DNA of 64,000 bases, taken from positions 65,544-129,543 of the forward strand of contig JBMNIZ010000016.1 in assembly GCA_050951405.1 (NCBI GenBank). The letters are read 5' to 3'. Position numbers and translations under genes: made by a program. Below, piece after piece: positions 1 through 63,816 of the stretch; within the stretch, counting starts at the first letter, position 1, and every line of letters starts with the position of its first letter. This stretch comes from Bacillota bacterium. GTDB lineage: Bacteria; Bacillota; DULZ01. The notes under the pieces were generated by a model that was not told the origin of the DNA, ran no database searches, and worked only from the letters and a program-made list of their open reading frames with translations.

Positions 1-58
1 CTTAAAAAAAATATGTGCTATGATTAATTTTTTTATTTATTTTTAAAAAACTTGGCCA

Positions 59-286
59 TTAATTATTTAGATGAACAATTGTAGTGCCGTCTTCATTGGC
101 TGTAAGTTTGTACTCAATATTGATGATGCCCTTCGTCCGAATATGGATATATCTTTTACAGTGGCGGCATTTGATAATGACTGTATCTCCGTCGATCTGA
201 CAGACGATTTTTTTGCATTGACATCTGAAGTTTTGCATTTCGGCCCCCCCTTTATCATAAGCAATAAAGGAAAAAAACAAATTCAC
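59..286 (-). CDS. Small Cys-rich zinc-finger protein resembling the Mu Com family; probable start at the internal Met (MQNFRCQCKK..., ~59..238)
   Basis: Translation shows an RCxC...(20 aa)...CxHCK pattern (FRCQCKKIVCQIDGDTVIIKCRHCKRYIHI) typical of Com-type C4 zinc fingers; sits beside the IS nest at the window edge. Confidence 0.35.
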   Translation of the reverse strand: MNLFFSFIAYDKGGAEMQNFRCQCKKIVCQIDGDTVIIKCRHCKRYIHIRTKGIINIEYKLTANEDGTTIVHLNN

Positions 287-542
287 TGTTCTTGGTGCCG
301 GCTAATCCAGCTTTGAAAAATTATTATTGCTACATACTAAGATGAAAGTTTTCTATGCCTATCCCCTCCTGTCTTTGCAAGGCAATTCCAGAACCAGATC
401 AGGCGACTATTGTTCATCCAGGAGAGTTATTGCATATTGGAGCTTCAAAGAGCAGCGTATGGTAGAGTCAAATTTCACATAGCTGGGGAGCCGGTTCTTT
501 TTGGTTCACCCCTTTCAAGGAACCTCCCCATTTTTGTTAAAG

Positions 543-582
543 GGCCGGCTCCACAAAAGGAACCGGCCTTTTTTACTCTATT
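543..582 (+). terminator. Candidate intrinsic terminator (GC hairpin ggccgg...ccggcc followed by a T6 run)
   Basis: gggccggctccacaaaaggaaccggcc followed by ttttttactc, read directly from the sequence. Confidence 0.3.
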
Positions 583-1035
583 TGATGGTGACTCAGCCTT
601 TTGCCTCTGACCTGGTCTGAAAATATGAAATTTTAGGTGAAATTTTTCCCGATCCTCTTGGTTTTTATCCCTATTATAAGATACTATTCCCAGCCTAGAT
701 TCTACGCTGCGGCCAAATATCCTGCTGGAAATGTGCGTAATTTCACTATTTGCCGGTTAATAGCTTTTCTACTGTAATATATTCGGGATTAGTTGAAAAA
801 GTCCTGCCTGATATTGCATTTGAATAAAAAATATTGATAAAATATTGTAAAAGAGCAACATTAATCTTGCCCTATTATCTCCTGAGGCGGAGCAAGTGCG
901 GGTTACAAAGAGAAGTCCAGGTGCGCTTGCCTGAAAAACCGAAAAGAGTGTCAATAACTTATGAAAATGTCACCCCAAAAGATAGTTAATTATCGTTAGA
1001 AAATGTCATCTTTAACCTGGCTATTGGGATGATAG

Positions 1036-1107
1036 CTGGCTGCCTGGCAACGTCAAGGGCGAGCTTTAGCGAGTTCATCTTGACCCTTGACGTTGCCAGG
1101 CAGCCAG
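1036..1107. repeat. 72-bp quasi-palindrome inside IS-A (24-bp perfect IR arms around a 24-bp core); the core orientation differs between the two IS-A copies
   Basis: Arms ctggctgcctggcaacgtcaaggg / cccttgacgttgccaggcagccag; core cgagctttagcgagttcatcttga. Confidence 0.85.
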
Positions 1108-1142
1108 CAGAGTAATAGTTAGCCAGGTTAAAACAACGTGTT

Positions 1143-2489
1143 TTAAGCCATTTTTGAGAGAAATATTTCTTCGAGCATCGCGAGTATTTCTTGATCACTT
1201 TCGGTAAAGGCCAGTTTTTTCACAAGTCTATGACCGTACTTGTAGTAATGGCTGTCCGGTGGTGACCATTTCTTTCTCTCTTTTGCAGGAGCCTTGTCCT
1301 GTATCTTCTTTGACTTAACGAACGGCATTGTATCGTATATAGCACCCTTATAGGCCACTTTAATACCGAAATGAGGGCTAGTAAGTACATCTATGCGGGC
1401 ACTTTTGGGTAGTGGAGGAAGTTCCTTGGACTGAATAATCTTAAAATGTTTACTGTAAAAGGAAAATACTCCACCATTGTCAAATGTACGCTGCTTAACG
1501 ATGCAAAGGATGTGGTCTATGCACAGGTTTGAAGGTACGGGTCTGAAAGCACATTCGGTATTTTCAGGCTCTACCGCAAACCGCTTATTAAACTTGTATA
1601 TGTACTTTGCTAAAAAGGCATTAGCCTCATCCAAAGTGTTGATGTTGTTACGCTTAAACTCGACCGGTAGTCTACTTTGCAGCGTTTCCCACAGACGTTC
1701 CACACGGCCCTTTGCTTGAGGTGAACGTGCGGTAATAATGGTTACACCCATCTCTTCCATAGCACGGCCAAACTGGGTTGGTTTTGTTCTTTTACCTGCC
1801 AACTGTTCTTCAATAGACAGTTTATCCTTTAAAGGTGATTTGAAAATGGTATGGCTGTCGGAATAGATACTAACCGGGATGCCGAAATTTTCAAACATAA
1901 AGCGCATAACTTCAAAGTACCCCTGGAGGCATTCATTCTTAGCCAGGTATAAGGCTACCACTTTGCCTGTAGCATCATCAATACCACCATGCAGGCTAAA
2001 CTTTTCGCTGGTACCAAACCATTCATAGGGCGTAGCATCCATCTGGATTAAAAGCCCTTCCTGGGGTTTACGCTTTCTAGTGCGATGGGGCTTAAACCTC
2101 CTACGTTTTTTCGGGCTTTCAAAGCCCGACTTCTTTAGCAGCTTGTAAAGCGCTGAATAGCTGATATTAATTTGTTCATGCTCTGCCAGCATTTCCTGAA
2201 AGTGCAAGAAATTAGCGTTTTTGTAGGTATCTGACTTTTTAAGGTTAATAATTGTCTGGGCAGTTTGATCCGGGATGGCATGATAAGGTTTTTTGCCTTT
2301 GTTTTTATGGACTAGGAAAGACGCCCCCTGTTCTTGCACTCCTTTCTTGAGGCGGAGTATTTGTCTTTCGCAAAGTCCAAGGCTCTCAGATGCTTCTTTG
2401 ACTGTGATATGCCCTTCGATGAGTTTGGTAATTACTAAAAACCTATTAAGTTGTTTTTGGGACATAAGATAATACACCTCGTTATCCAT
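1143..2489 (-). CDS. DDE transposase (N-terminal HTH plus rve integrase-core domain), 448 aa
   Basis: ORF translation (…MDATPYEWFG…SIYSDSHTIF…RVERLWETLQ) matches the rve DDE-transposase architecture; identical ORF at 42659-44006. Confidence 0.8.
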   Translation of the reverse strand: MDNEVYYLMSQKQLNRFLVITKLIEGHITVKEASESLGLCERQILRLKKGVQEQGASFLVHKNKGKKPYHAIPDQTAQTIINLKKSDTYKNANFLHFQEMLAEHEQINISYSALYKLLKKSGFESPKKRRRFKPHRTRKRKPQEGLLIQMDATPYEWFGTSEKFSLHGGIDDATGKVVALYLAKNECLQGYFEVMRFMFENFGIPVSIYSDSHTIFKSPLKDKLSIEEQLAGKRTKPTQFGRAMEEMGVTIITARSPQAKGRVERLWETLQSRLPVEFKRNNINTLDEANAFLAKYIYKFNKRFAVEPENTECAFRPVPSNLCIDHILCIVKQRTFDNGGVFSFYSKHFKIIQSKELPPLPKSARIDVLTSPHFGIKVAYKGAIYDTMPFVKSKKIQDKAPAKERKKWSPPDSHYYKYGHRLVKKLAFTESDQEILAMLEEIFLSKMA

Positions 2490-2740
2490 AGTGACATTTT
2501 ATCAAGATAATTAACAAGATGACATTATCATAAGATAACAACACTGAAAAGGTAAGTTGTAAAATTAATTGCCGCATTTAATAAAAAATAGAGACTCAAG
2601 GCTAATGTTAATGGCCATGATAAAATCGACATAAATGGTCACGAAAAACCCGCAAAACCGGTCATTTAGAAAAGGAAAAAAGCTCGTTCCCTACAACATT
2701 TTCATTGGAACCAAAACATTAAAGAAGGGAACGAGCAAAA

Positions 2741-4222
2741 ATGACAGGAGTGTGGGAAATCGTGAACATTCAAGAATGTCGGAAAGCCGGCCTAAGTAAG
2801 ACCGCCACAGCACAGCGTTTAAACCTGGACCGTGGCACCGTAGCAAAATATTGGGATGTTGAAGAGCCTTTGAAAGCACCACCGGTCTACCAGCGAAGTT
2901 CCAAAATCGATCTTTACAAAGAGTATATCACAAATCGACTGGAAAAATGGCCTGAACTGTTTGCAGAAACAATTTATGAAGAAATTAAAAAAATGGGATA
3001 TAAAGGCTCCGCAAGAACCGTCCGGCGCTACGTCTCTAAGGTACGACCAAAACTTTCCCGGGAATACAAACCCTATGAAACCCTGCCAGGTGAACAAGCC
3101 CAGGTTGACTGGGGCCACTTAGGCACCATTGTCGAAAACGGCCGGCGGGTTAAGCTTTATGTCTTTGTTTTCTGCCTAAGTTGGTCAAGAGAAAGATATG
3201 CGGAGTTCATCACTTCCCTCAATATGGCCGTCTTTAACGCCTGCCTACATCGAGCTTTCGAGTATGTGGGAGGGATTCCCGAAACAATCCTCTTTGACAA
3301 CGCCAAAACTGTGGTAGCGGAACGAGTAGGTACGATAGTGAGGTTTAATTCTACCCTTCTGGAACTGGCTTTAAGATATGGCTTCACACCCAAAGCATGT
3401 TGGATCAATGATCCGGAAAGCAAGGGCAAAGTAGAATCCAATGTCAAGTACTTGAAAAAGAGCTTCTACTACGGGCGGGAATTTAAGAACTTGGAAGACC
3501 TAAACCAGCAGTTGCAGGTGTGGCTTAAGGAAGTGGCCAATGCTAAAGTCCATGGCACCACCGGTAAAATACCTCAAGAACGCCTAATAGAAGAACGAAA
3601 CTATCTAAAACCGTTGCCGGCAATCGAAGCACCCTTACCCGTCTATGAAACCCGGAAAGCCAGCAAAACAGCCCTTATCTCCGTAGACAACAACAAATAT
3701 TCAGTCCCCGCTAAACTGGCCCGTAAAACAGTACATTTCAGGCGATACGAGGACAGGATTGAAATTCTAGATGATGAGCACGTAGTAGCTGTACATACCT
3801 TGGTAAAAGGTAAAAACCAAGTAATCATTAACGATGACCACTACCCTGAGCATCAAAAAATGAAACAAAGGCCTAAACATCCACTGCAAGCTGAGTTTGA
3901 AGCCTTGGCCCCGGTGGCCGAAGAATACCTGCAGCACCTTAGCCAACGCCGGGAAGGGCACCTTAGAGAACAGATGCAGAAGATCATCTCCCTAAAAGAA
4001 GATTACAGTGCTTCTGAAATCAATGCAGCCATGGAACGAGCTCTTAAGTTTGGAGCTATTGGTTACGCAAAGTTAAAATCAATACTGCAAAAACAATCCC
4101 AGAACCCCAATATTCTGCCTACAGTAGGTTCCAACAGAGCCAATTACAAGCTGGATAACCTTCCTTACCAAGTAGAAGTAGAACGCCGGGATACCAGCTA
4201 TTACGAGGAGGTTATCCAGTGA
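2741..4222 (+). CDS. istA: IS21-family transposase IstA (HTH plus DDE integrase core), 493 aa
   Basis: Translation, and the 4-bp overlap with downstream istB that is typical of IS21. Confidence 0.85.
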   Translation: MTGVWEIVNIQECRKAGLSKTATAQRLNLDRGTVAKYWDVEEPLKAPPVYQRSSKIDLYKEYITNRLEKWPELFAETIYEEIKKMGYKGSARTVRRYVSKVRPKLSREYKPYETLPGEQAQVDWGHLGTIVENGRRVKLYVFVFCLSWSRERYAEFITSLNMAVFNACLHRAFEYVGGIPETILFDNAKTVVAERVGTIVRFNSTLLELALRYGFTPKACWINDPESKGKVESNVKYLKKSFYYGREFKNLEDLNQQLQVWLKEVANAKVHGTTGKIPQERLIEERNYLKPLPAIEAPLPVYETRKASKTALISVDNNKYSVPAKLARKTVHFRRYEDRIEILDDEHVVAVHTLVKGKNQVIINDDHYPEHQKMKQRPKHPLQAEFEALAPVAEEYLQHLSQRREGHLREQMQKIISLKEDYSASEINAAMERALKFGAIGYAKLKSILQKQSQNPNILPTVGSNRANYKLDNLPYQVEVERRDTSYYEEVIQ

Positions 4223-5007
4223 TTAGACAAATACCAACCGCCGATCGGAAAACCCTGGAACAGAATTTAAAAAGGTTAAGACTTCCCCATATTAGAAACA
4301 TCCTTGACGATGTTAATGAATTGGCGCTGGAAGAAGAACCATCCTACCTGGATTTCTTAGCCTATGTTATTAACAAGGAGGTGGAACATAGAGACAAGAC
4401 CCAACAAGAAAAAAGAATGAAAAGAGCCTGCTTTCCCCAGATAAAGACTTTGGAAGAATTTGATTTTAGTTTCCAAAACAGCATCACCCAACAAAGCATC
4501 TATGATCTGGCAACCCTTCAATTTATCGAAGCCAAGGAGAACATCATCTTTCTGGGTCCACCGGGAGTAGGCAAGAGCCACCTGGCCATTGCCCTGGGAG
4601 TTAAGGCAGTGCTAAAAGGTTACCAAGTCCGTTTTTACACACTCACGGACCTCATTGCCGAGCTTTATGCAGCTTTAGCCGATAACAGCCTGAACAGAAA
4701 GATTAACAATATCTTAAAAAATGACCTTATCATTCTGGACGAACTGGGCTATGTGTCCATGGATGAAACCGCATCAGACCATATTTTCCAGCTGGTCACC
4801 AAAGCTTACGAAAACCGTTCTTTGATCATTACCAGCAACCTGGATTTTGGAGAATGGGGCACTCTTTTTGTGAACATGAGTACTGCTGCAGCTATCTTAG
4901 ATCGCTTACTACACCATGCCCATGTGTTTAACCTTAGGGGGAACAGTTATCGGGTAAGAAACCGATTAATACAACCAACAAATAAGATAGCGGCAACTAC
5001 AGGCTAA
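4219..5007 (+). CDS. istB: IS21-family helper ATPase IstB (AAA+, Walker A GPPGVGKSHLA), 262 aa
   Basis: Translation shows a Walker A motif and a DnaC/IstB-like sequence. Confidence 0.85.
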   Translation: MIRQIPTADRKTLEQNLKRLRLPHIRNILDDVNELALEEEPSYLDFLAYVINKEVEHRDKTQQEKRMKRACFPQIKTLEEFDFSFQNSITQQSIYDLATLQFIEAKENIIFLGPPGVGKSHLAIALGVKAVLKGYQVRFYTLTDLIAELYAALADNSLNRKINNILKNDLIILDELGYVSMDETASDHIFQLVTKAYENRSLIITSNLDFGEWGTLFVNMSTAAAILDRLLHHAHVFNLRGNSYRVRNRLIQPTNKIAATTG

Positions 5008-5188
5008 ATAAACCGGATTAAGCGAGTGCGAATTGCCTAGGAGGCGTTCCGCTACGCTCCACTGCCTCCTAGGCAATTCCTCTACCGTTATCGCAAGGAT
5101 TAAATTCTGTATGACTGCTGGTTTTTCATGGCCAAAATTGCTGGTTTTTTAGTGACCAAAAATGCGGTTTTTCAAATGGCCATTGACA

Positions 5189-5217
5189 TTTAATAAAAAA
5201 TAGAGACTCAAGGCTAA
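5189..5217. repeat. 29-bp direct repeat tttaataaaaaatagagactcaaggctaa, also at 2577-2605, flanking the IS21 insertion (apparent target duplication of IS30 left-end sequence)
   Basis: The uninterrupted IS30 copy 2 (63617-63660, reverse complement) has this sequence only once. Confidence 0.75.
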
Positions 5218-5271
5218 ACCTCTGATATGTTTAAGGTAACTACGCTTAAAAACATAAAGGAGGCAAAGCAC

Positions 5272-6330
5272 ATGAGTCAACTCAATTGTACCACGACTTC
5301 CCGCCGCTTTAAACACATCACTGTAAAAGAACGCTATCAGATTGAAATTCTTCTAAAGGAGAAGAAGTCACCCAGCGAGATAGCAAAGCTGTTAGGCAAG
5401 CATAAGCGAACCATCGAACGTGAGATTGCCCGTGGAACTGTCAGGATGCTGAGAAGCGACCTGGTTTATGTTGATAGATACTGTGCAGATACAGCAGAGC
5501 GAATATACCGGGAGAGAGCTGCTAATAAGGGAGCATGCTTAAAGATCGGTCATGACCATGGACTAGCCGATTACATTGAAAAAAAGATTATCAAAGAGGG
5601 ATATACCCCTGACGCAGTCATTGGCGAAATCCGGGCAAAAGGCTTAAAATTTAAGACTAGTATATGCACAAAAACGCTCTATAACTATATCGACAAAGAA
5701 GTATTTGCAAATATAACAAATAAAAACCTTCCAGTAAAACGAGTACCTAAAAAAAATCGCCATAAGAGGGTACGAGTTGCCCACAACAATCTAAAAGGCA
5801 GAAGCATTGAAGAAAGACCTGCGGCAGCTAATACTCGTGAAGAAGCCGGCCATTGGGAGATGGATTGTGTTGTAAGCGGCAAAGGGAAAGGCAAAGCCGC
5901 ACTCTTAGTTCTAACAGAACGCAAGTTTAGAAAAGAGATTATCCGAAAGATGCCGGAAAAGACACAGAAATCAGTGAAGAAAACGCTGGATAGGCTTGAA
6001 AGAGAGTACGGAGCACGCTTTTCAGAAGTGTTCAAAACCATTACGGTAGATAACGGAAGCGAGTTTCTTAACAGTGTAGAATTAGAGAGTTCAATCAGAA
6101 AGCCGGGCACTCATCGGACTAAAATCTATTATGCTCACCCATTCAGCGCATGGGAACGTGGGTCCAATGAAAATGCTAATAAGCTAATACGTCGGTTTAT
6201 TCCAAAGGGCACAGATATCAGCAAGCTTAAACAGAAAGATATTAGGCGAATTGAGAACTGGATGAATAATTACCCAAGAAAAATTCATGGATATAAATCT
6301 GCCAATGAGATGGCAAAGATGGCAGTATAA
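5272..6330 (+). CDS. IS30-family transposase (HTH plus DDE), ~352 aa from the Met with an RBS (aaggagg N7 ATG)
   Basis: Translation MSQLNCTTTSRRFKHITVKERYQIEIL... has an IS30-like HTH and rve core; identical ORF at 62513-63571 on the minus strand. Confidence 0.8.
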   Translation: MSQLNCTTTSRRFKHITVKERYQIEILLKEKKSPSEIAKLLGKHKRTIEREIARGTVRMLRSDLVYVDRYCADTAERIYRERAANKGACLKIGHDHGLADYIEKKIIKEGYTPDAVIGEIRAKGLKFKTSICTKTLYNYIDKEVFANITNKNLPVKRVPKKNRHKRVRVAHNNLKGRSIEERPAAANTREEAGHWEMDCVVSGKGKGKAALLVLTERKFRKEIIRKMPEKTQKSVKKTLDRLEREYGARFSEVFKTITVDNGSEFLNSVELESSIRKPGTHRTKIYYAHPFSAWERGSNENANKLIRRFIPKGTDISKLKQKDIRRIENWMNNYPRKIHGYKSANEMAKMAV

Positions 6331-6523
6331 TCAGAGGATGCCAAAATATGGGTGGCAATTAAACTTGCAATTCCCCTGATGGGAAAAATTCTGCTAAGAT
6401 ATTGACTTCCAGAAAGGAGTATATTAAGCTGAAATTGGACCGATGGGTTTAATACCTGAACCAGCGGATCAAACATTTGACTGAGGAGTTTTCTGCACTG
6501 TTCTTGTCACCGAAGGAGGAACA

Positions 6524-7144
6524 ATGGTTACTAAGGAATCCCGTAAAGAAAAAGAAAGAAACTTTAGAAGAAAAATAATCGCTGATGCGGCCGAAAGACT
6601 TTTTTCCGCAAATACTTTTGAATTCGTCACGATGGAGGACATCGCCAGTGAAGCGGAATTTGCCAAAGGCACTCTTTATCAATATTTTAACAGCAAGGAT
6701 GATATTTTTGCCTATGTGATTTGCCGCAGCATCGATGAAATCTGCGAAAAAATCAAGAAAGAATGTTTGTCTGAGCAGACCGGACAGGAATCCCTGGAAA
6801 AGCTCATTGCTATTTATTACGAGTACTTACAGGAACGAAAAAACCTGTATATATCTTTCATCCGCCTCCAATTAAGCAACGCCTTACCGGAAGAAATTGT
6901 GACCAGAGTAACGAATTCACACCAGCAGAAAATGAAACTGGTGCAGCAGGTAATTGAACGCGGCCTTGAGGAAAAAATTTTTCTCCATGAGGATGCACAA
7001 ATGCTGCTGAAGACCATTGACGGCATCGTCAGGGGTTTTAATTTTACTTTTATCAGCGATGAATATGTAATAGACAGAGAAGAAAGCATTGGTTTAATAA
7101 AAAAGGTGCTATTCGGGGGAATTCTGGCTAAACGAGGCAGGTGA
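6524..7144 (+). CDS. TetR/AcrR-family transcriptional regulator, 206 aa
   Basis: N-terminal TetR HTH (IIADAAERLFSANTFEFVTMEDIASEAEFAKGTLYQYF). Confidence 0.8.
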   Translation: MVTKESRKEKERNFRRKIIADAAERLFSANTFEFVTMEDIASEAEFAKGTLYQYFNSKDDIFAYVICRSIDEICEKIKKECLSEQTGQESLEKLIAIYYEYLQERKNLYISFIRLQLSNALPEEIVTRVTNSHQQKMKLVQQVIERGLEEKIFLHEDAQMLLKTIDGIVRGFNFTFISDEYVIDREESIGLIKKVLFGGILAKRGR

Positions 7145-42513: not shown

Positions 42514-42591
42514 CCGCTTCCCCTCCTTGTGTTTCGCAAATAACTATACCATACCCTAAGATTATAAACCTCCCCCTTCTCCTTGTCAACG

Positions 42592-42607
42592 TTTGGAAAA
42601 ACTTGCT
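42592..42607. repeat. 16-bp direct repeat gtttggaaaaacttgc flanking IS-A copy 2 (second copy at 44202-44217); apparent target duplication
   Basis: Perfect copies sit immediately outside both IS-A ends. Confidence 0.8.
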
Positions 42608-42658
42608 GTTGTTATCTTGTGATAATGTCATCTTGTTAATTATCTTGATAAAATGTAC

Positions 42659-44006
42659 TATGGATAACGAGGTGTATTATCTTATGTCCCAAAAACAACT
42701 TAATAGGTTTTTAGTAATTACCAAACTCATCGAAGGGCATATCACAGTCAAAGAAGCATCTGAGAGCCTTGGACTTTGCGAAAGACAAATACTCCGCCTC
42801 AAGAAAGGAGTGCAAGAACAGGGGGCGTCTTTCCTAGTCCATAAAAACAAAGGCAAAAAACCTTATCATGCCATCCCGGATCAAACTGCCCAGACAATTA
42901 TTAACCTTAAAAAGTCAGATACCTACAAAAACGCTAATTTCTTGCACTTTCAGGAAATGCTGGCAGAGCATGAACAAATTAATATCAGCTATTCAGCGCT
43001 TTACAAGCTGCTAAAGAAGTCGGGCTTTGAAAGCCCGAAAAAACGTAGGAGGTTTAAGCCCCATCGCACTAGAAAGCGTAAACCCCAGGAAGGGCTTTTA
43101 ATCCAGATGGATGCTACGCCCTATGAATGGTTTGGTACCAGCGAAAATTTTAGCCTGCATGGTGGTATTGATGATGCTACAGGCAAAGTGGTAGCCTTAT
43201 ACCTGGCTAAGAATGAATGCCTCCAGGGGTACTTTGAAGTTATGCGCTTTATGTTTGAAAATTTCGGCATCCCGGTTAGTATCTATTCCGACAGCCATAC
43301 CATTTTCAAATCACCTTTAAAGGATAAACTGTCTATTGAAGAACAGTTGGCAGGTAAAAGAACAAAACCAACCCAGTTTGGCCGTGCTATGGAAGAGATG
43401 GGTGTAACCATTATTACCGCACGTTCACCTCAAGCAAAGGGCCGTGTGGAACGTCTGTGGGAAACGCTGCAAAGTAGACTGCCGGTCGAGTTTAAGCGTA
43501 ACAACATCAACACTTTGGATGAGGCTAATGCCTTTTTAGCAAAGTACATATACAAGTTTAATAAGCGGTTTGCGGTAGAGCCTGAAAATACCGAATGTGC
43601 TTTCAGACCCGTACCTTCAAACCTGTGCATAGACCACATCCTTTGCATCGTTAAGCAGCGTACATTTGACAATGGTGGAGTATTTTCCTTTTACAGTAAA
43701 CATTTTAAGATTATTCAGTCCAAGGAACTTCCTCCACTACCCAAAAGTGCCCGCATAGATGTACTTACTAGCCCTCATTTCGGTATTAAAGTGGCCTATA
43801 AGGGTGCTATATACGATACAATGCCGTTCGTTAAGTCAAAGAAGATACAGGACAAGGCTCCTGCAAAAGAGAGAAAGAAATGGTCACCACCGGACAGCCA
43901 TTACTACAAGTACGGTCATAGACTTGTGAAAAAACTGGCCTTTACCGAAAGTGATCAAGAAATACTCGCGATGCTCGAAGAAATATTTCTCTCAAAAATG
44001 GCTTAA
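42659..44006 (+). CDS. DDE (rve) transposase of IS-A copy 2, 448 aa
   Basis: Identical to the copy-1 protein apart from one residue; the 501-aa ORF in the track is an upstream read-through extension. Confidence 0.8.
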
Positions 44007-44065
44007 AACACGTTGTTTTAACCTGGCTAACTATTACTCTGCTGGCTGCCTGGCAACGTCAAGGG

Positions 44066-44137
44066 CGAGCTTTAGCGAGTTCATCTTGACCCTTGACGTT
44101 GCCAGACAGCCAGCTATCATCCCAATAGCCAGGTTAA
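44066..44137. repeat. Quasi-palindrome of IS-A copy 2 with its core in the opposite relative orientation to copy 1
   Basis: Core 44090-44113 cgagctttagcgagttcatcttga is identical on the + strand in both copies even though the elements are inverted. Confidence 0.85.
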
Positions 44138-44265
44138 AGATGACATTTTCTAACGATAATTAACTATCTTTTGGGGTGACATTTTCATAAGTTATTGACA
44201 CGTTTGGAAAAACTTGCGAGAGAATAGCAATGCAAAATAGCAGGAGTAAGAATCCCGCAGCCAAG

Positions 44266-44296
44266 CTGTCTGCACATTTGATGAAAAAACCGGCTC
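44266..44296 (-). terminator. Intrinsic terminator after mazF (ccggcctgagagccgg plus T6 on the minus strand)
   Basis: Read from the sequence. Confidence 0.6.
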
Positions 44297-62461: not shown

Positions 62462-63676
62462 AGGGGAATTGCAAGTTTAATTGCCACCCATATTTTGGCA
62501 TCCTCTGATTGATTATACTGCCATCTTTGCCATCTCATTGGCAGATTTATATCCATGAATTTTTCTTGGGTAATTATTCATCCAGTTCTCAATTCGCCTA
62601 ATATCTTTCTGTTTAAGCTTGCTGATATCTGTGCCCTTTGGAATAAACCGACGTATTAGCTTATTAGCATTTTCATTGGACCCACGTTCCCATGCGCTGA
62701 ATGGGTGAGCATAATAGATTTTAGTCCGATGAGTGCCCGGCTTTCTGATTGAACTCTCTAATTCTACACTATTAAGAAACTCGCTTCCGTTATCTACCGT
62801 AATGGTTTTGAACACTTCTGAAAAGCGTGCTCCGTACTCTCTTTCAAGCCTATCCAGCGTTTTCTTCACTGATTTCTGTGTCTTTTCCGGCATCTTTCGG
62901 ATAATCTCTTTTCTAAACTTGCGTTCTGTTAGAACTAAGAGTGCGGCTTTGCCTTTCCCTTTGCCGCTTACAACACAATCCATCTCCCAATGGCCGGCTT
63001 CTTCACGAGTATTAGCTGCCGCAGGTCTTTCTTCAATGCTTCTGCCTTTTAGATTGTTGTGGGCAACTCGTACCCTCTTATGGCGATTTTTTTTAGGTAC
63101 TCGTTTTACTGGAAGGTTTTTATTTGTTATATTTGCAAATACTTCTTTGTCGATATAGTTATAGAGCGTTTTTGTGCATATACTAGTCTTAAATTTTAAG
63201 CCTTTTGCCCGGATTTCGCCAATGACTGCGTCAGGGGTATATCCCTCTTTGATAATCTTTTTTTCAATGTAATCGGCTAGTCCATGGTCATGACCGATCT
63301 TTAAGCATGCTCCCTTATTAGCAGCTCTCTCCCGGTATATTCGCTCTGCTGTATCTGCACAGTATCTATCAACATAAACCAGGTCGCTTCTCAGCATCCT
63401 AACAGTTCCACGGGCAATCTCACGTTCGATGGTTCGCTTATGCTTGCCTAACAGCTTTGCTATCTCGCTGGGTGACTTCTTCTCCTTTAGAAGAATTTCA
63501 ATCTGATAGCGTTCTTTTACAGTGATGTGTTTAAAGCGGCGGGAAGTCGTGGTACAATTGAGTTGACTCATGTGCTTTGCCTCCTTTATGTTTTTAAGCG
63601 TAGTTACCTTAAACATATCAGAGGTTTAGCCTTGAGTCTCTATTTTTTATTAAATGCGGCAATTAATTTTACAACT
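62462..63676 (-). mobile_element. IS30-family element copy 2 (intact, 1215 bp), flanked by the 14-bp direct repeat gccaaagatagttt (62448-62461 and 63677-63690)
   Basis: Ends match copy 1; direct repeat read from the sequence. Confidence 0.8.
62513..63571 (-). CDS. IS30-family transposase (identical to the 5272-6330 product)
   Basis: Translation. Confidence 0.8.
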   Translation of the reverse strand: MSQLNCTTTSRRFKHITVKERYQIEILLKEKKSPSEIAKLLGKHKRTIEREIARGTVRMLRSDLVYVDRYCADTAERIYRERAANKGACLKIGHDHGLADYIEKKIIKEGYTPDAVIGEIRAKGLKFKTSICTKTLYNYIDKEVFANITNKNLPVKRVPKKNRHKRVRVAHNNLKGRSIEERPAAANTREEAGHWEMDCVVSGKGKGKAALLVLTERKFRKEIIRKMPEKTQKSVKKTLDRLEREYGARFSEVFKTITVDNGSEFLNSVELESSIRKPGTHRTKIYYAHPFSAWERGSNENANKLIRRFIPKGTDISKLKQKDIRRIENWMNNYPRKIHGYKSANEMAKMAV

Positions 63677-63816
63677 TACCGCCAAAGATAGTTTATTTCA
63701 GCACAAACTCAGATCCATGACTAGTATTTTTATTTTGTTCAGGTTTTCATACTCTACCATTAGTTTAACCGCTGATGCTGATCAGTTTTTCCTCATTCTC
63801 TTTTTTATTCAATATG

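Follow-up and report, generated by a model that had tools for sequence, protein, structure and literature searches.

Inversion of the apical loop of a long hairpin in one of two copies of an IS1202-family insertion sequence, and occurrence of the hairpin in other mobile elements

Background

Template switching between the arms of inverted repeats is known to produce inversion of the spacer together with homogenisation of the arms (PMC8604942, PMC8794818, PMC5453318). The locus described here resembles such events at inverted repeats and quasi-palindromes in that the spacer is exactly inverted, the change is a one-step, multi-nucleotide one, and an arm polymorphism is found alongside it. It differs from them in that a perfect 24-bp palindrome within a multicopy bacterial insertion sequence (IS) is concerned, in that the ancestral and the derived states occur together in one genome, and in that the mechanism is here one that we infer. 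A second point of comparison is provided by invertons and fim/hin-type phase variation, where a segment flanked by inverted repeats lies beside a promoter element and both orientations exist, as is also the case at the present locus. Segments inverted by a recombinase measure roughly 100 bp or more, which allows synapsis. The present locus departs from these systems by the lack of a recombinase, the size of the segment (24 bp), the occurrence of one orientation per locus in the contig data, and the maintenance of that orientation over long divergence.

The hairpin that carries the inverted spacer has likenesses of its own. Single-strand promoters and origins, namely Frpo/ssi of conjugative plasmids and sso of rolling-circle plasmids (PMC11541004, PMC4595007), as well as the minus origin of filamentous phages, share with it a long, imperfect and strand-asymmetric hairpin offering a duplex -35 and a -10, and on a small rolling-circle replicon the same hairpin core directly follows the rep gene. 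It differs from them in its hosts, which are DDE insertion sequences and have no described element of this kind, and in that any activity on single-stranded DNA is here a prediction. Single-strand origins of the ssoA type are recognised by two motifs, RSB (TTATGCCGAGAAAATTT) and CS-6 (TAGCGT) (PMC4598088). With the outward-facing promoters of other IS, the hairpin has in common a conserved -35 (TTGACN) and -10 (TAnnAT) lying 16-18 nt apart, ~100 nt inside the right end, and pointing outward; it is set apart from them by a -35 situated in a long covarying stem, a -10 situated in an internal loop, and the presence of the hairpin core in elements devoid of a -10.

In the present work, we analysed a stretch of 64,000 nucleotides from a Bacillota bacterium, hereafter the window, in which two copies of one IS differ by the orientation of such a spacer. 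We consider it likely that this difference reflects a single, derived and probably non-programmed event, in which the 24-nt apical loop of a long hairpin carried by the IS was inverted. Mutations of this class are known, and the flip adds a new case to them; the hairpin module is the better lead.

Results

Two inverted copies of an IS1202-family element

The two copies of the IS lie ~43 kb apart in one genome and are inverted relative to each other. Copy 1 occupies positions 949-2543 (minus strand; 1595 bp) and copy 2 positions 42607-44200 (plus strand; 1594 bp), each with TGT...ACA ends, which corrects the limits of 42608-44201 proposed for copy 2 in a previous, sequence-only reading of the same DNA. 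Copy 2 is bordered by a perfect 17-bp target duplication (CGTTTGGAAAAACTTGC; 42590-42606 and 44201-44217), and copy 1 is devoid of a target-site duplication. Each copy carries a DDE transposase gene (1143-2489, minus strand, encoding 448 aa in copy 1; 42660-44006, plus strand, in copy 2). In a profile search, the transposase scored 417 bits against NCBIfam transpos_ISNCY_2 (cut-off 250; E = 4.5e-125 for copy 1); its N-terminal HTH was recognised by Pfam HTH_28 above the cut-off, and the rve integrase core gave a sub-threshold score of 21.7 bits (Pfam cut-off 32.6). The ISTde1 subgroup is defined by 5'-TGT termini and direct target repeats of 15-17 bp (10.1101/2022.12.17.520857). Target duplications measured 17 bp at copy 2 and 16-17 bp at another locus (L009), and, judged by transposase type, TGT termini and target-repeat length, the element is a member of the ISTde1 subgroup of the IS1202 family. 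The two copies had been described as otherwise reverse complements of each other, which holds for their relative orientation but not for their identity, as they differ, besides the hairpin loop and a G/A difference in one hairpin arm, at 4 further sites, one of which leads to K163N in the transposase of copy 2 relative to copy 1.

Copy 1 is part of a nest of IS elements. Its left end abuts the end or a fragment of an IS30-family element (window 2544-6544; transposase 5227-6330), which is itself split by an IS21 element (istA 2741-4222, istB 4219-5007), and a second IS30-family copy is present at about 62462-63680. In contigs from other samples, the left junction of copy 1 is joined to different right flanks. 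Two contigs (L001 and L065; JGI 3300053716) show the same IS junction though their flanking DNA is only ~85% identical, the first ~82 nt of the right flank (window 44201-44282) being identical between them; this suggests either a strong target preference or transfer of the IS together with a short flank by recombination.

Exact inversion of the hairpin loop in copy 1

Both copies harbor, 35 nt past the transposase stop codon, a hairpin in which a 24-nt core is enclosed by two complementary arms of 24 bp (one of them CTGGCTGCCTGGCAACGTCAAGGG). Reading of the sequence, together with pattern and repeat searches, placed this hairpin in copy 1 at 1036-1059 (the distal arm in transposase sense, which holds a -35 hexamer, TTGACG, on the minus strand at 1056-1051), 1060-1083 (the core, or apical loop) and 1084-1107 (the proximal arm), and in copy 2 at 44042-44113 on the plus strand (arms 44042-44065 and 44090-44113; loop 44066-44089). 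The core coordinates of the sequence-only reading were thus right for copy 1, and those that it gave for copy 2 (44090-44113) belong to an arm. Its term "terminal hairpin" was likewise imprecise, as the structure is located 87-158 nt in from the right end, past the stop codon of the transposase gene and before the subterminal GGTGACATTTTC repeats.

On the plus strand, the cores of both copies read CGAGCTTTAGCGAGTTCATCTTGA, as the sequence-only reading had noticed. Given the opposite orientations of the two copies, the core is in element coordinates an exact reverse complement, at 24 of its 24 bases, and reads in transposase sense TCAAGATGAACTCGCTAAAGCTCG in copy 1 (orientation A) and CGAGCTTTAGCGAGTTCATCTTGA in copy 2 (orientation B). 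The probability of such a core match by chance is ~4^-24, and the arm pattern was produced by none of the window shuffles. The segment that has changed is exactly the spacer between the two perfect 24-bp inverted repeats. Stem, -35 and -10 are unaffected by the flip, which mirror-inverts the apex, so that in copy 1 a mini-stem replaces the T-rich bulge that normally precedes the -35. The G/A difference between the arms is also real: copy 2 has an A at 44106, where the element-equivalent position of copy 1 has a G, and this A creates a C-A mismatch in the stem of copy 2. As to the hypothetical 70-aa ORF that overlaps the hairpin, the inversion does alter it, as had been stated; we rejected it as a gene, and the alteration is probably meaningless, because neither its frame, nor its length, nor its start is conserved among the relatives. 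Flips of this kind call for caution, as in alignments of IS copies they look like 16 clustered substitutions.

Loop orientation across insertion sites

The exact transposase and its K163N variant were looked up in public assemblies, and metagenome contigs were scanned for the arm pattern. Sorting the insertion sites by their right-flank sequence yielded 11 distinct junctions, all of them read from assembled contigs. Orientation B (CGAGC...CTTGA in transposase sense, as in copy 2) was found at 10 of these 11 sites, and orientation A at the copy-1 junction only. This junction is in orientation A in both of the contigs that cover it, namely the window and JGI contig Ga0534105_02941 (L005), which may come from related samples or from the same one. 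L005 is 100% identical to window positions 1-2501, carries an IS256-like insertion in the left end of the IS, and lacks the IS21 element; on account of the last two features, the window and L005 represent different haplotypes or assemblies. A private SNP at IS position 875, common to copy 1 and L005, shows copy-specific assembly. Wherever several assembled contigs covered a site they agreed in loop orientation: A in both at the copy-1 locus, B in 3 of 3 at the copy-2 locus, and B in all of L002, L003 and L017 and in both L006 and L007; heterogeneity of low frequency may escape a comparison of contigs. A scan of a genome collection by protein returned only 4 loci. Copy 1 being the sole flipped copy found, nothing points to transposition of the flipped version.

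The near-identical IS copies vary otherwise at only ~8 positions in 1.6 kb, which points to a recent burst, and the occurrence of one 24-nt inversion among so few other changes fits a local hotspot. The combinations of SNPs among copies fail the four-gamete test, the arm G/A being found in all combinations with other SNPs, which may reflect exchange among copies or the chimeric nature of some metagenomic IS contigs. We had considered the arm G/A as a trace of quasi-palindrome correction and dropped this idea, since other pairs of SNPs fail the test too and recombination or chimeric assembly explains the pattern equally well. The ends of two contigs (L008 and L069) fall exactly within the hairpin, which makes the palindrome a breakpoint of assembly and calls for caution when the orientation of the loop is read from short-read assemblies. 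With respect to recombinases, the IS encodes only its DDE transposase, and none was found to recur in the flanks of ~10 loci.

Polarity of the inversion

The same loop, in orientation B, is present in relatives whose transposases are 90% (L061), 89% (L011, L016, L018, L024, L027, L030 and L062/63) and 74% (L012) identical to that of the window element. More distant elements have a different loop sequence with the same asymmetric design (L055, 76%; L056, 70%; L020, 65%), and the design is again encountered at 63-65% identity in the P0019 group, in Carboxydocella thermautotrophica and in Koleobacter methoxysyntrophicus. In transposase sense, a GC mini-stem (CGGGC-GAA-GCCCG, for instance) directly adjoins the 5' arm, and a T-rich bulge of 8-10 nt (TTCAYTTTA) separates this mini-stem from the 3' arm. 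Five IS3-family elements show the same arrangement, with the mini-stem 5' and the T-rich bulge 3'. As the hairpin-bearing IS1202-type relatives and these five IS3-family elements share the design of copy 2, orientation B is, from this comparison of sequences, the ancestral one and orientation A the derived one. One exception was found in a viral contig (L071), whose IS3-family element has the opposite loop orientation relative to its transposase. Thus, orientation has changed more than once in the wider family (copy 1 and L071), which is what a switch would predict likewise.

Architecture of the hairpin and a predicted outward promoter

The hairpin forms the top of a conserved, ~120-nt imperfect palindrome (window 1014-1129 and 44020-44135; also L011, L020, L043, L050, L055, L056 and L057). 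Its inner 8-bp stem (GTCAAGGG/CCCTTGAC) is invariant in all module-bearing IS1202-type relatives, and the next 12 stem positions vary with compensation, 10 of the 12 variable pairs changing on both sides in a stem alignment of 19 sequences, for which the apical loops were replaced by GAAA to make it gap-free. In this alignment, 88.9% of the cells are paired, compared with 20-44% in slid controls, and the covariation score was reached by none of 500 shuffles; wobble pairs modestly favour the transposase-sense strand. Further out, the two halves of the outer stem of the window element, AACCTGGCTA (1014-1023 in copy 1) and TAGCCAGGTT (1120-1129), pair with each other and covary with AACCGGGCTT/AAGCCCGGTT in other elements. 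DNA folds of the sense strand were predicted for 8 IS1202-type sequences (six lineages plus both loop orientations of the window) and share one architecture (z = -6.6 to -10.6), with an outer stem of 10-17 bp, an internal loop of ~11 x 11 nt, an inner stem of 20-26 bp and an asymmetric apex.

In the IS1202-type elements, the 3' arm holds TTGAC(N), and 16-18 nt downstream there follows TATCAT, TATAAT, TACAAT, TATTAT or TATGAT, in which T-12, A-11, A-8 and T-7 are invariant and from which the -35 is separated by a freely diverging spacer. In copy 1, the -10 hexamer TATCAT is at 1029-1034 on the minus strand, 16 nt after the -35 and within the ~11-nt internal loop of the predicted fold; in copy 2, the promoter spans 44093-44120 on the plus strand (-35 TTGACG, 44093-44098; -10 TATCAT, 44115-44120). 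The sequence pattern makes a sigma-70-like promoter on the distal arm of IS1202-type elements, pointing to the right IS end, a well-supported prediction. In the predicted fold, the -35 is in the duplex of the inner stem, the -10 begins 1-2 bases past this stem in the internal loop, and the outer stem starts from near +1, by virtue of which the modelled folded strand resembles an open promoter complex.

Several other readings of the hairpin were rejected. An antisense promoter starting from the proximal arm has no -10 at the right distance in any lineage, and a canonical intrinsic terminator is contradicted by the lack of a U-tract after the long stem; the apical mini-stem and the T-rich bulge would at best make a weak terminator. 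Resemblances to CtsR, LexA, Rex and Xer/attC-type sites were discarded after checking by eye. A scan of the IS against Rfam at a permissive E-value gave no matching family, the only matches being sub-threshold ones to miRNA precursors, as is typical of any long hairpin. Neither the hairpin sequence nor hairpins of IS1202 elements turned up in literature searches, and the two papers on the IS1202 family (10.1101/2022.12.17.520857 and PMC10132070) do not mention the hairpin.

Distribution of the hairpin module

Five IS3-family elements with orfA/orfB (L019, L023, L025, L026 and L029, all on metagenome contigs) carry the same 14-nt arms, GGCAATGTCAAGGG/CCCTTGACATTGCC. Their loops end in GCGTTCATCTYGA, the modules lie ~90 nt inside the right end with the same orientation to the transposase as in IS1202-type elements, and they are without a good -10. 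Given that the same arms are found in IS1202-type and IS3-family elements, the module is shared between two IS families. Identical arms also occur on a circular replicon of ~2.96 kb (L022; contig ORBV01082917), at 1170-1219, where they follow a rolling-circle Rep gene (PF23343, 4e-14; phrog_3419) at a distance of 50 nt from its stop codon. By analogy, the position of the module beside this gene suggests an origin-like or single-strand function. At a further locus (L021, 102-157), the same arms, together with a CGGGC...GCCCG mini-stem, make up a perfect palindrome with 20-bp arms, located in frame inside a topA-like ORF (Toprim/Topoisom_bac); a palindrome within a topoisomerase I ORF is reminiscent of the in-frame palindromic insertions of Rickettsia.

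Among viral contigs, the strict arm pattern gave no match, and relaxed patterns gave 7 loci of mixed relevance. One of these (L071, 12099-12138; IMG/VR UViG_3300022230_000143) has a loop that matches that of the window at 21 of 24 positions, in the opposite orientation to the transposase, in an IS3-family element beside a phage ORF. The loop is probably inside this element, the left end of which is absent from the locus.

The module is not found in every IS1202-type relative. It is absent from L064 (P0034 group), the transposase of which is ~60% identical, and in the P0077 group (L033-L042) an unrelated hairpin with 14-bp arms (ACTAATGTCATTGT/ACAATGACATTAGT) stands at the same place. Being absent or replaced in some IS1202-type relatives and present elsewhere, the module appears as a dispensable, portable and optional cassette. 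A BLAST search of plasmids with the IS returned no DNA match and protein relatives of at most 38% identity, and a scan for inverted repeats downstream of the transposase in two of these relatives (from Paenibacillus and C. estertheticum) detected no such hairpin.

Discussion

Origin of the flipped loop

The inversion is exact, its polarity is from B to A, and it is restricted to one locus. A hairpin-templated inversion by template switching, one of the two origins put forward in the sequence-only reading, fits the exact bounds, the exact reverse complement, the derived state and the presence at 1 of 11 sites. During replication, the nascent strand would switch template at one of the perfect 24-bp arms, the loop would then be copied from the opposite strand, and a switch back at the other arm would complete the inversion. 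A RecA-independent inversion between short inverted repeats would be an alternative route to the same product. The end points of the inversion lie somewhere within the two perfect 24-bp inverted repeats, and template switching and recombination between the arms would look alike in the sequence. We further infer that, over population time scales, the flip does not revert. As a one-step inversion of a 24-nt spacer at a perfect palindrome, it offers a clean case from bacteria, and may serve as a textbook example.

The other origin that had been put forward, a small invertible switch, would imply a programmed and reversible phase variation altering the behaviour of the IS, for example through the region upstream of the outward promoter or through RNA or DNA structure. 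It has in its favour that perfect inverted repeats bound the segment directly upstream of a conserved -35, and that both orientations exist in nature, in copy 1 of the window and, within another IS, in L071. Against it, 10 of 11 sites and all close relatives show one orientation, both contigs covering the flipped locus show orientation A, and the loop asymmetry is kept down to 63% transposase identity, which would hardly be expected of a freely flipping segment; moreover, there is neither in the IS nor near it an invertase or integrase, and the segments that recombinases are known to invert are far longer than a spacer of 24 bp. We therefore regard a programmed switch as very improbable. The possibility that an assembler traversed the palindrome loop the wrong way at copy 1 deserves attention, because the arms are reverse-complementary over 24 bp and the loop can be traversed either way in a de Bruijn graph whose k does not exceed 25; the two contigs that stop inside the hairpin, and the SNP patterns suggestive of some chimerism among IS contigs, are in line with it. 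Any k of 26 or more, on the other hand, ties the first base of the loop to non-palindromic flanking sequence, and modern assemblers finish at k much larger than 26. Furthermore, orientation A was recovered in two structurally different contigs (the window with its IS21 element and L005 with its IS256-like insertion), the flipped copy is marked by a private SNP, and the ten other sites were consistently assembled as B, all of which makes an artefact an improbable explanation.

The loop might also have come from another copy, by short-patch gene conversion or template switching with an inverted IS copy aligned in parallel through the palindromic arms. The two window copies are indeed mutually inverted, their 74-bp hairpin region constitutes a direct repeat on the plus strand with 99% identity, and the SNP patterns speak for exchange among copies. 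Against this, the 1.6-kb antiparallel homology of the IS should out-compete a parallel homology of 24 bp, and, as the product would be the same as that of an intramolecular event, the sequence favours neither route; we accord such an inter-copy origin a low probability. An inversion within a single hairpin, probably non-programmed, is the reading that we retain as likely.

What the module may do

The hairpin may quite possibly act, with a probability that we place somewhat below even, at the level of the transposase mRNA, as a 3' UTR structure with a part in stability or processing or in weak termination; it would then overlap an ordinary outward promoter. A more far-reaching and rather doubtful reading, built on the modelled fold and on analogy, is that the portable module is a previously undescribed single-stranded-DNA promoter or single-strand origin of the Frpo/ssi/sso kind. 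The transposase-sense strand, displaced in replicative circle formation, would fold into a mimic of an open complex, with a duplex -35, an unpaired -10 in a bubble of ~11 nt and a downstream duplex, and host RNA polymerase could prime or transcribe from this folded single strand. Such a function would serve copy-out-paste-in IS (IS1202/ISTde1 and IS3) and small rolling-circle replicons alike, and the flip of copy 1 would then be a natural mutant of the orientation-specific apical part of the module.

A single-strand function is favoured by the open-complex-like fold, by the rolling-circle rep neighbour and by the strand asymmetry; it is weakened by the absence of the ssoA motifs and by the fact that neither the IS3 versions nor that of the replicon have a -10. 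The folds of IS1202-type elements present the -35 and the -10 at canonical spacing, as Frpo/ssi-like elements do; this does not apply to the IS3-type elements, which have no good -10. We rejected a single-strand origin of the ssoA type, as an RSB-like sequence is lacking and CS-6 is seen only as TAGCGA in the window-type loop and is absent from the relatives. Should the module turn out to have such a single-strand function, DDE insertion sequences would have been assigned a cis-acting priming element for the first time, and the replicative step of copy-out-paste-in transposition, which is poorly understood, would become more accessible to study. The interest of the module also lies in its being a promoter-bearing, covarying hairpin that has passed between elements as different as two IS families, a rolling-circle replicon and phage-like contigs.

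Two observations concern the ends of the element. The right IS tip ends in TTGACA (window 949-960 and 44189-44200), and the left IS end has TG-n-GATAAT 14 nt from the tip (window 2500-2543 and 42607-42650). By analogy with the circles of IS3-family elements, the abutment of the two IS ends with a spacer of ~3 bp would form a junction promoter. In addition, the subterminal repeats, the hairpin arms of relatives and the alternative hairpin of the P0077 group have a heptamer in common, AATGTCA.
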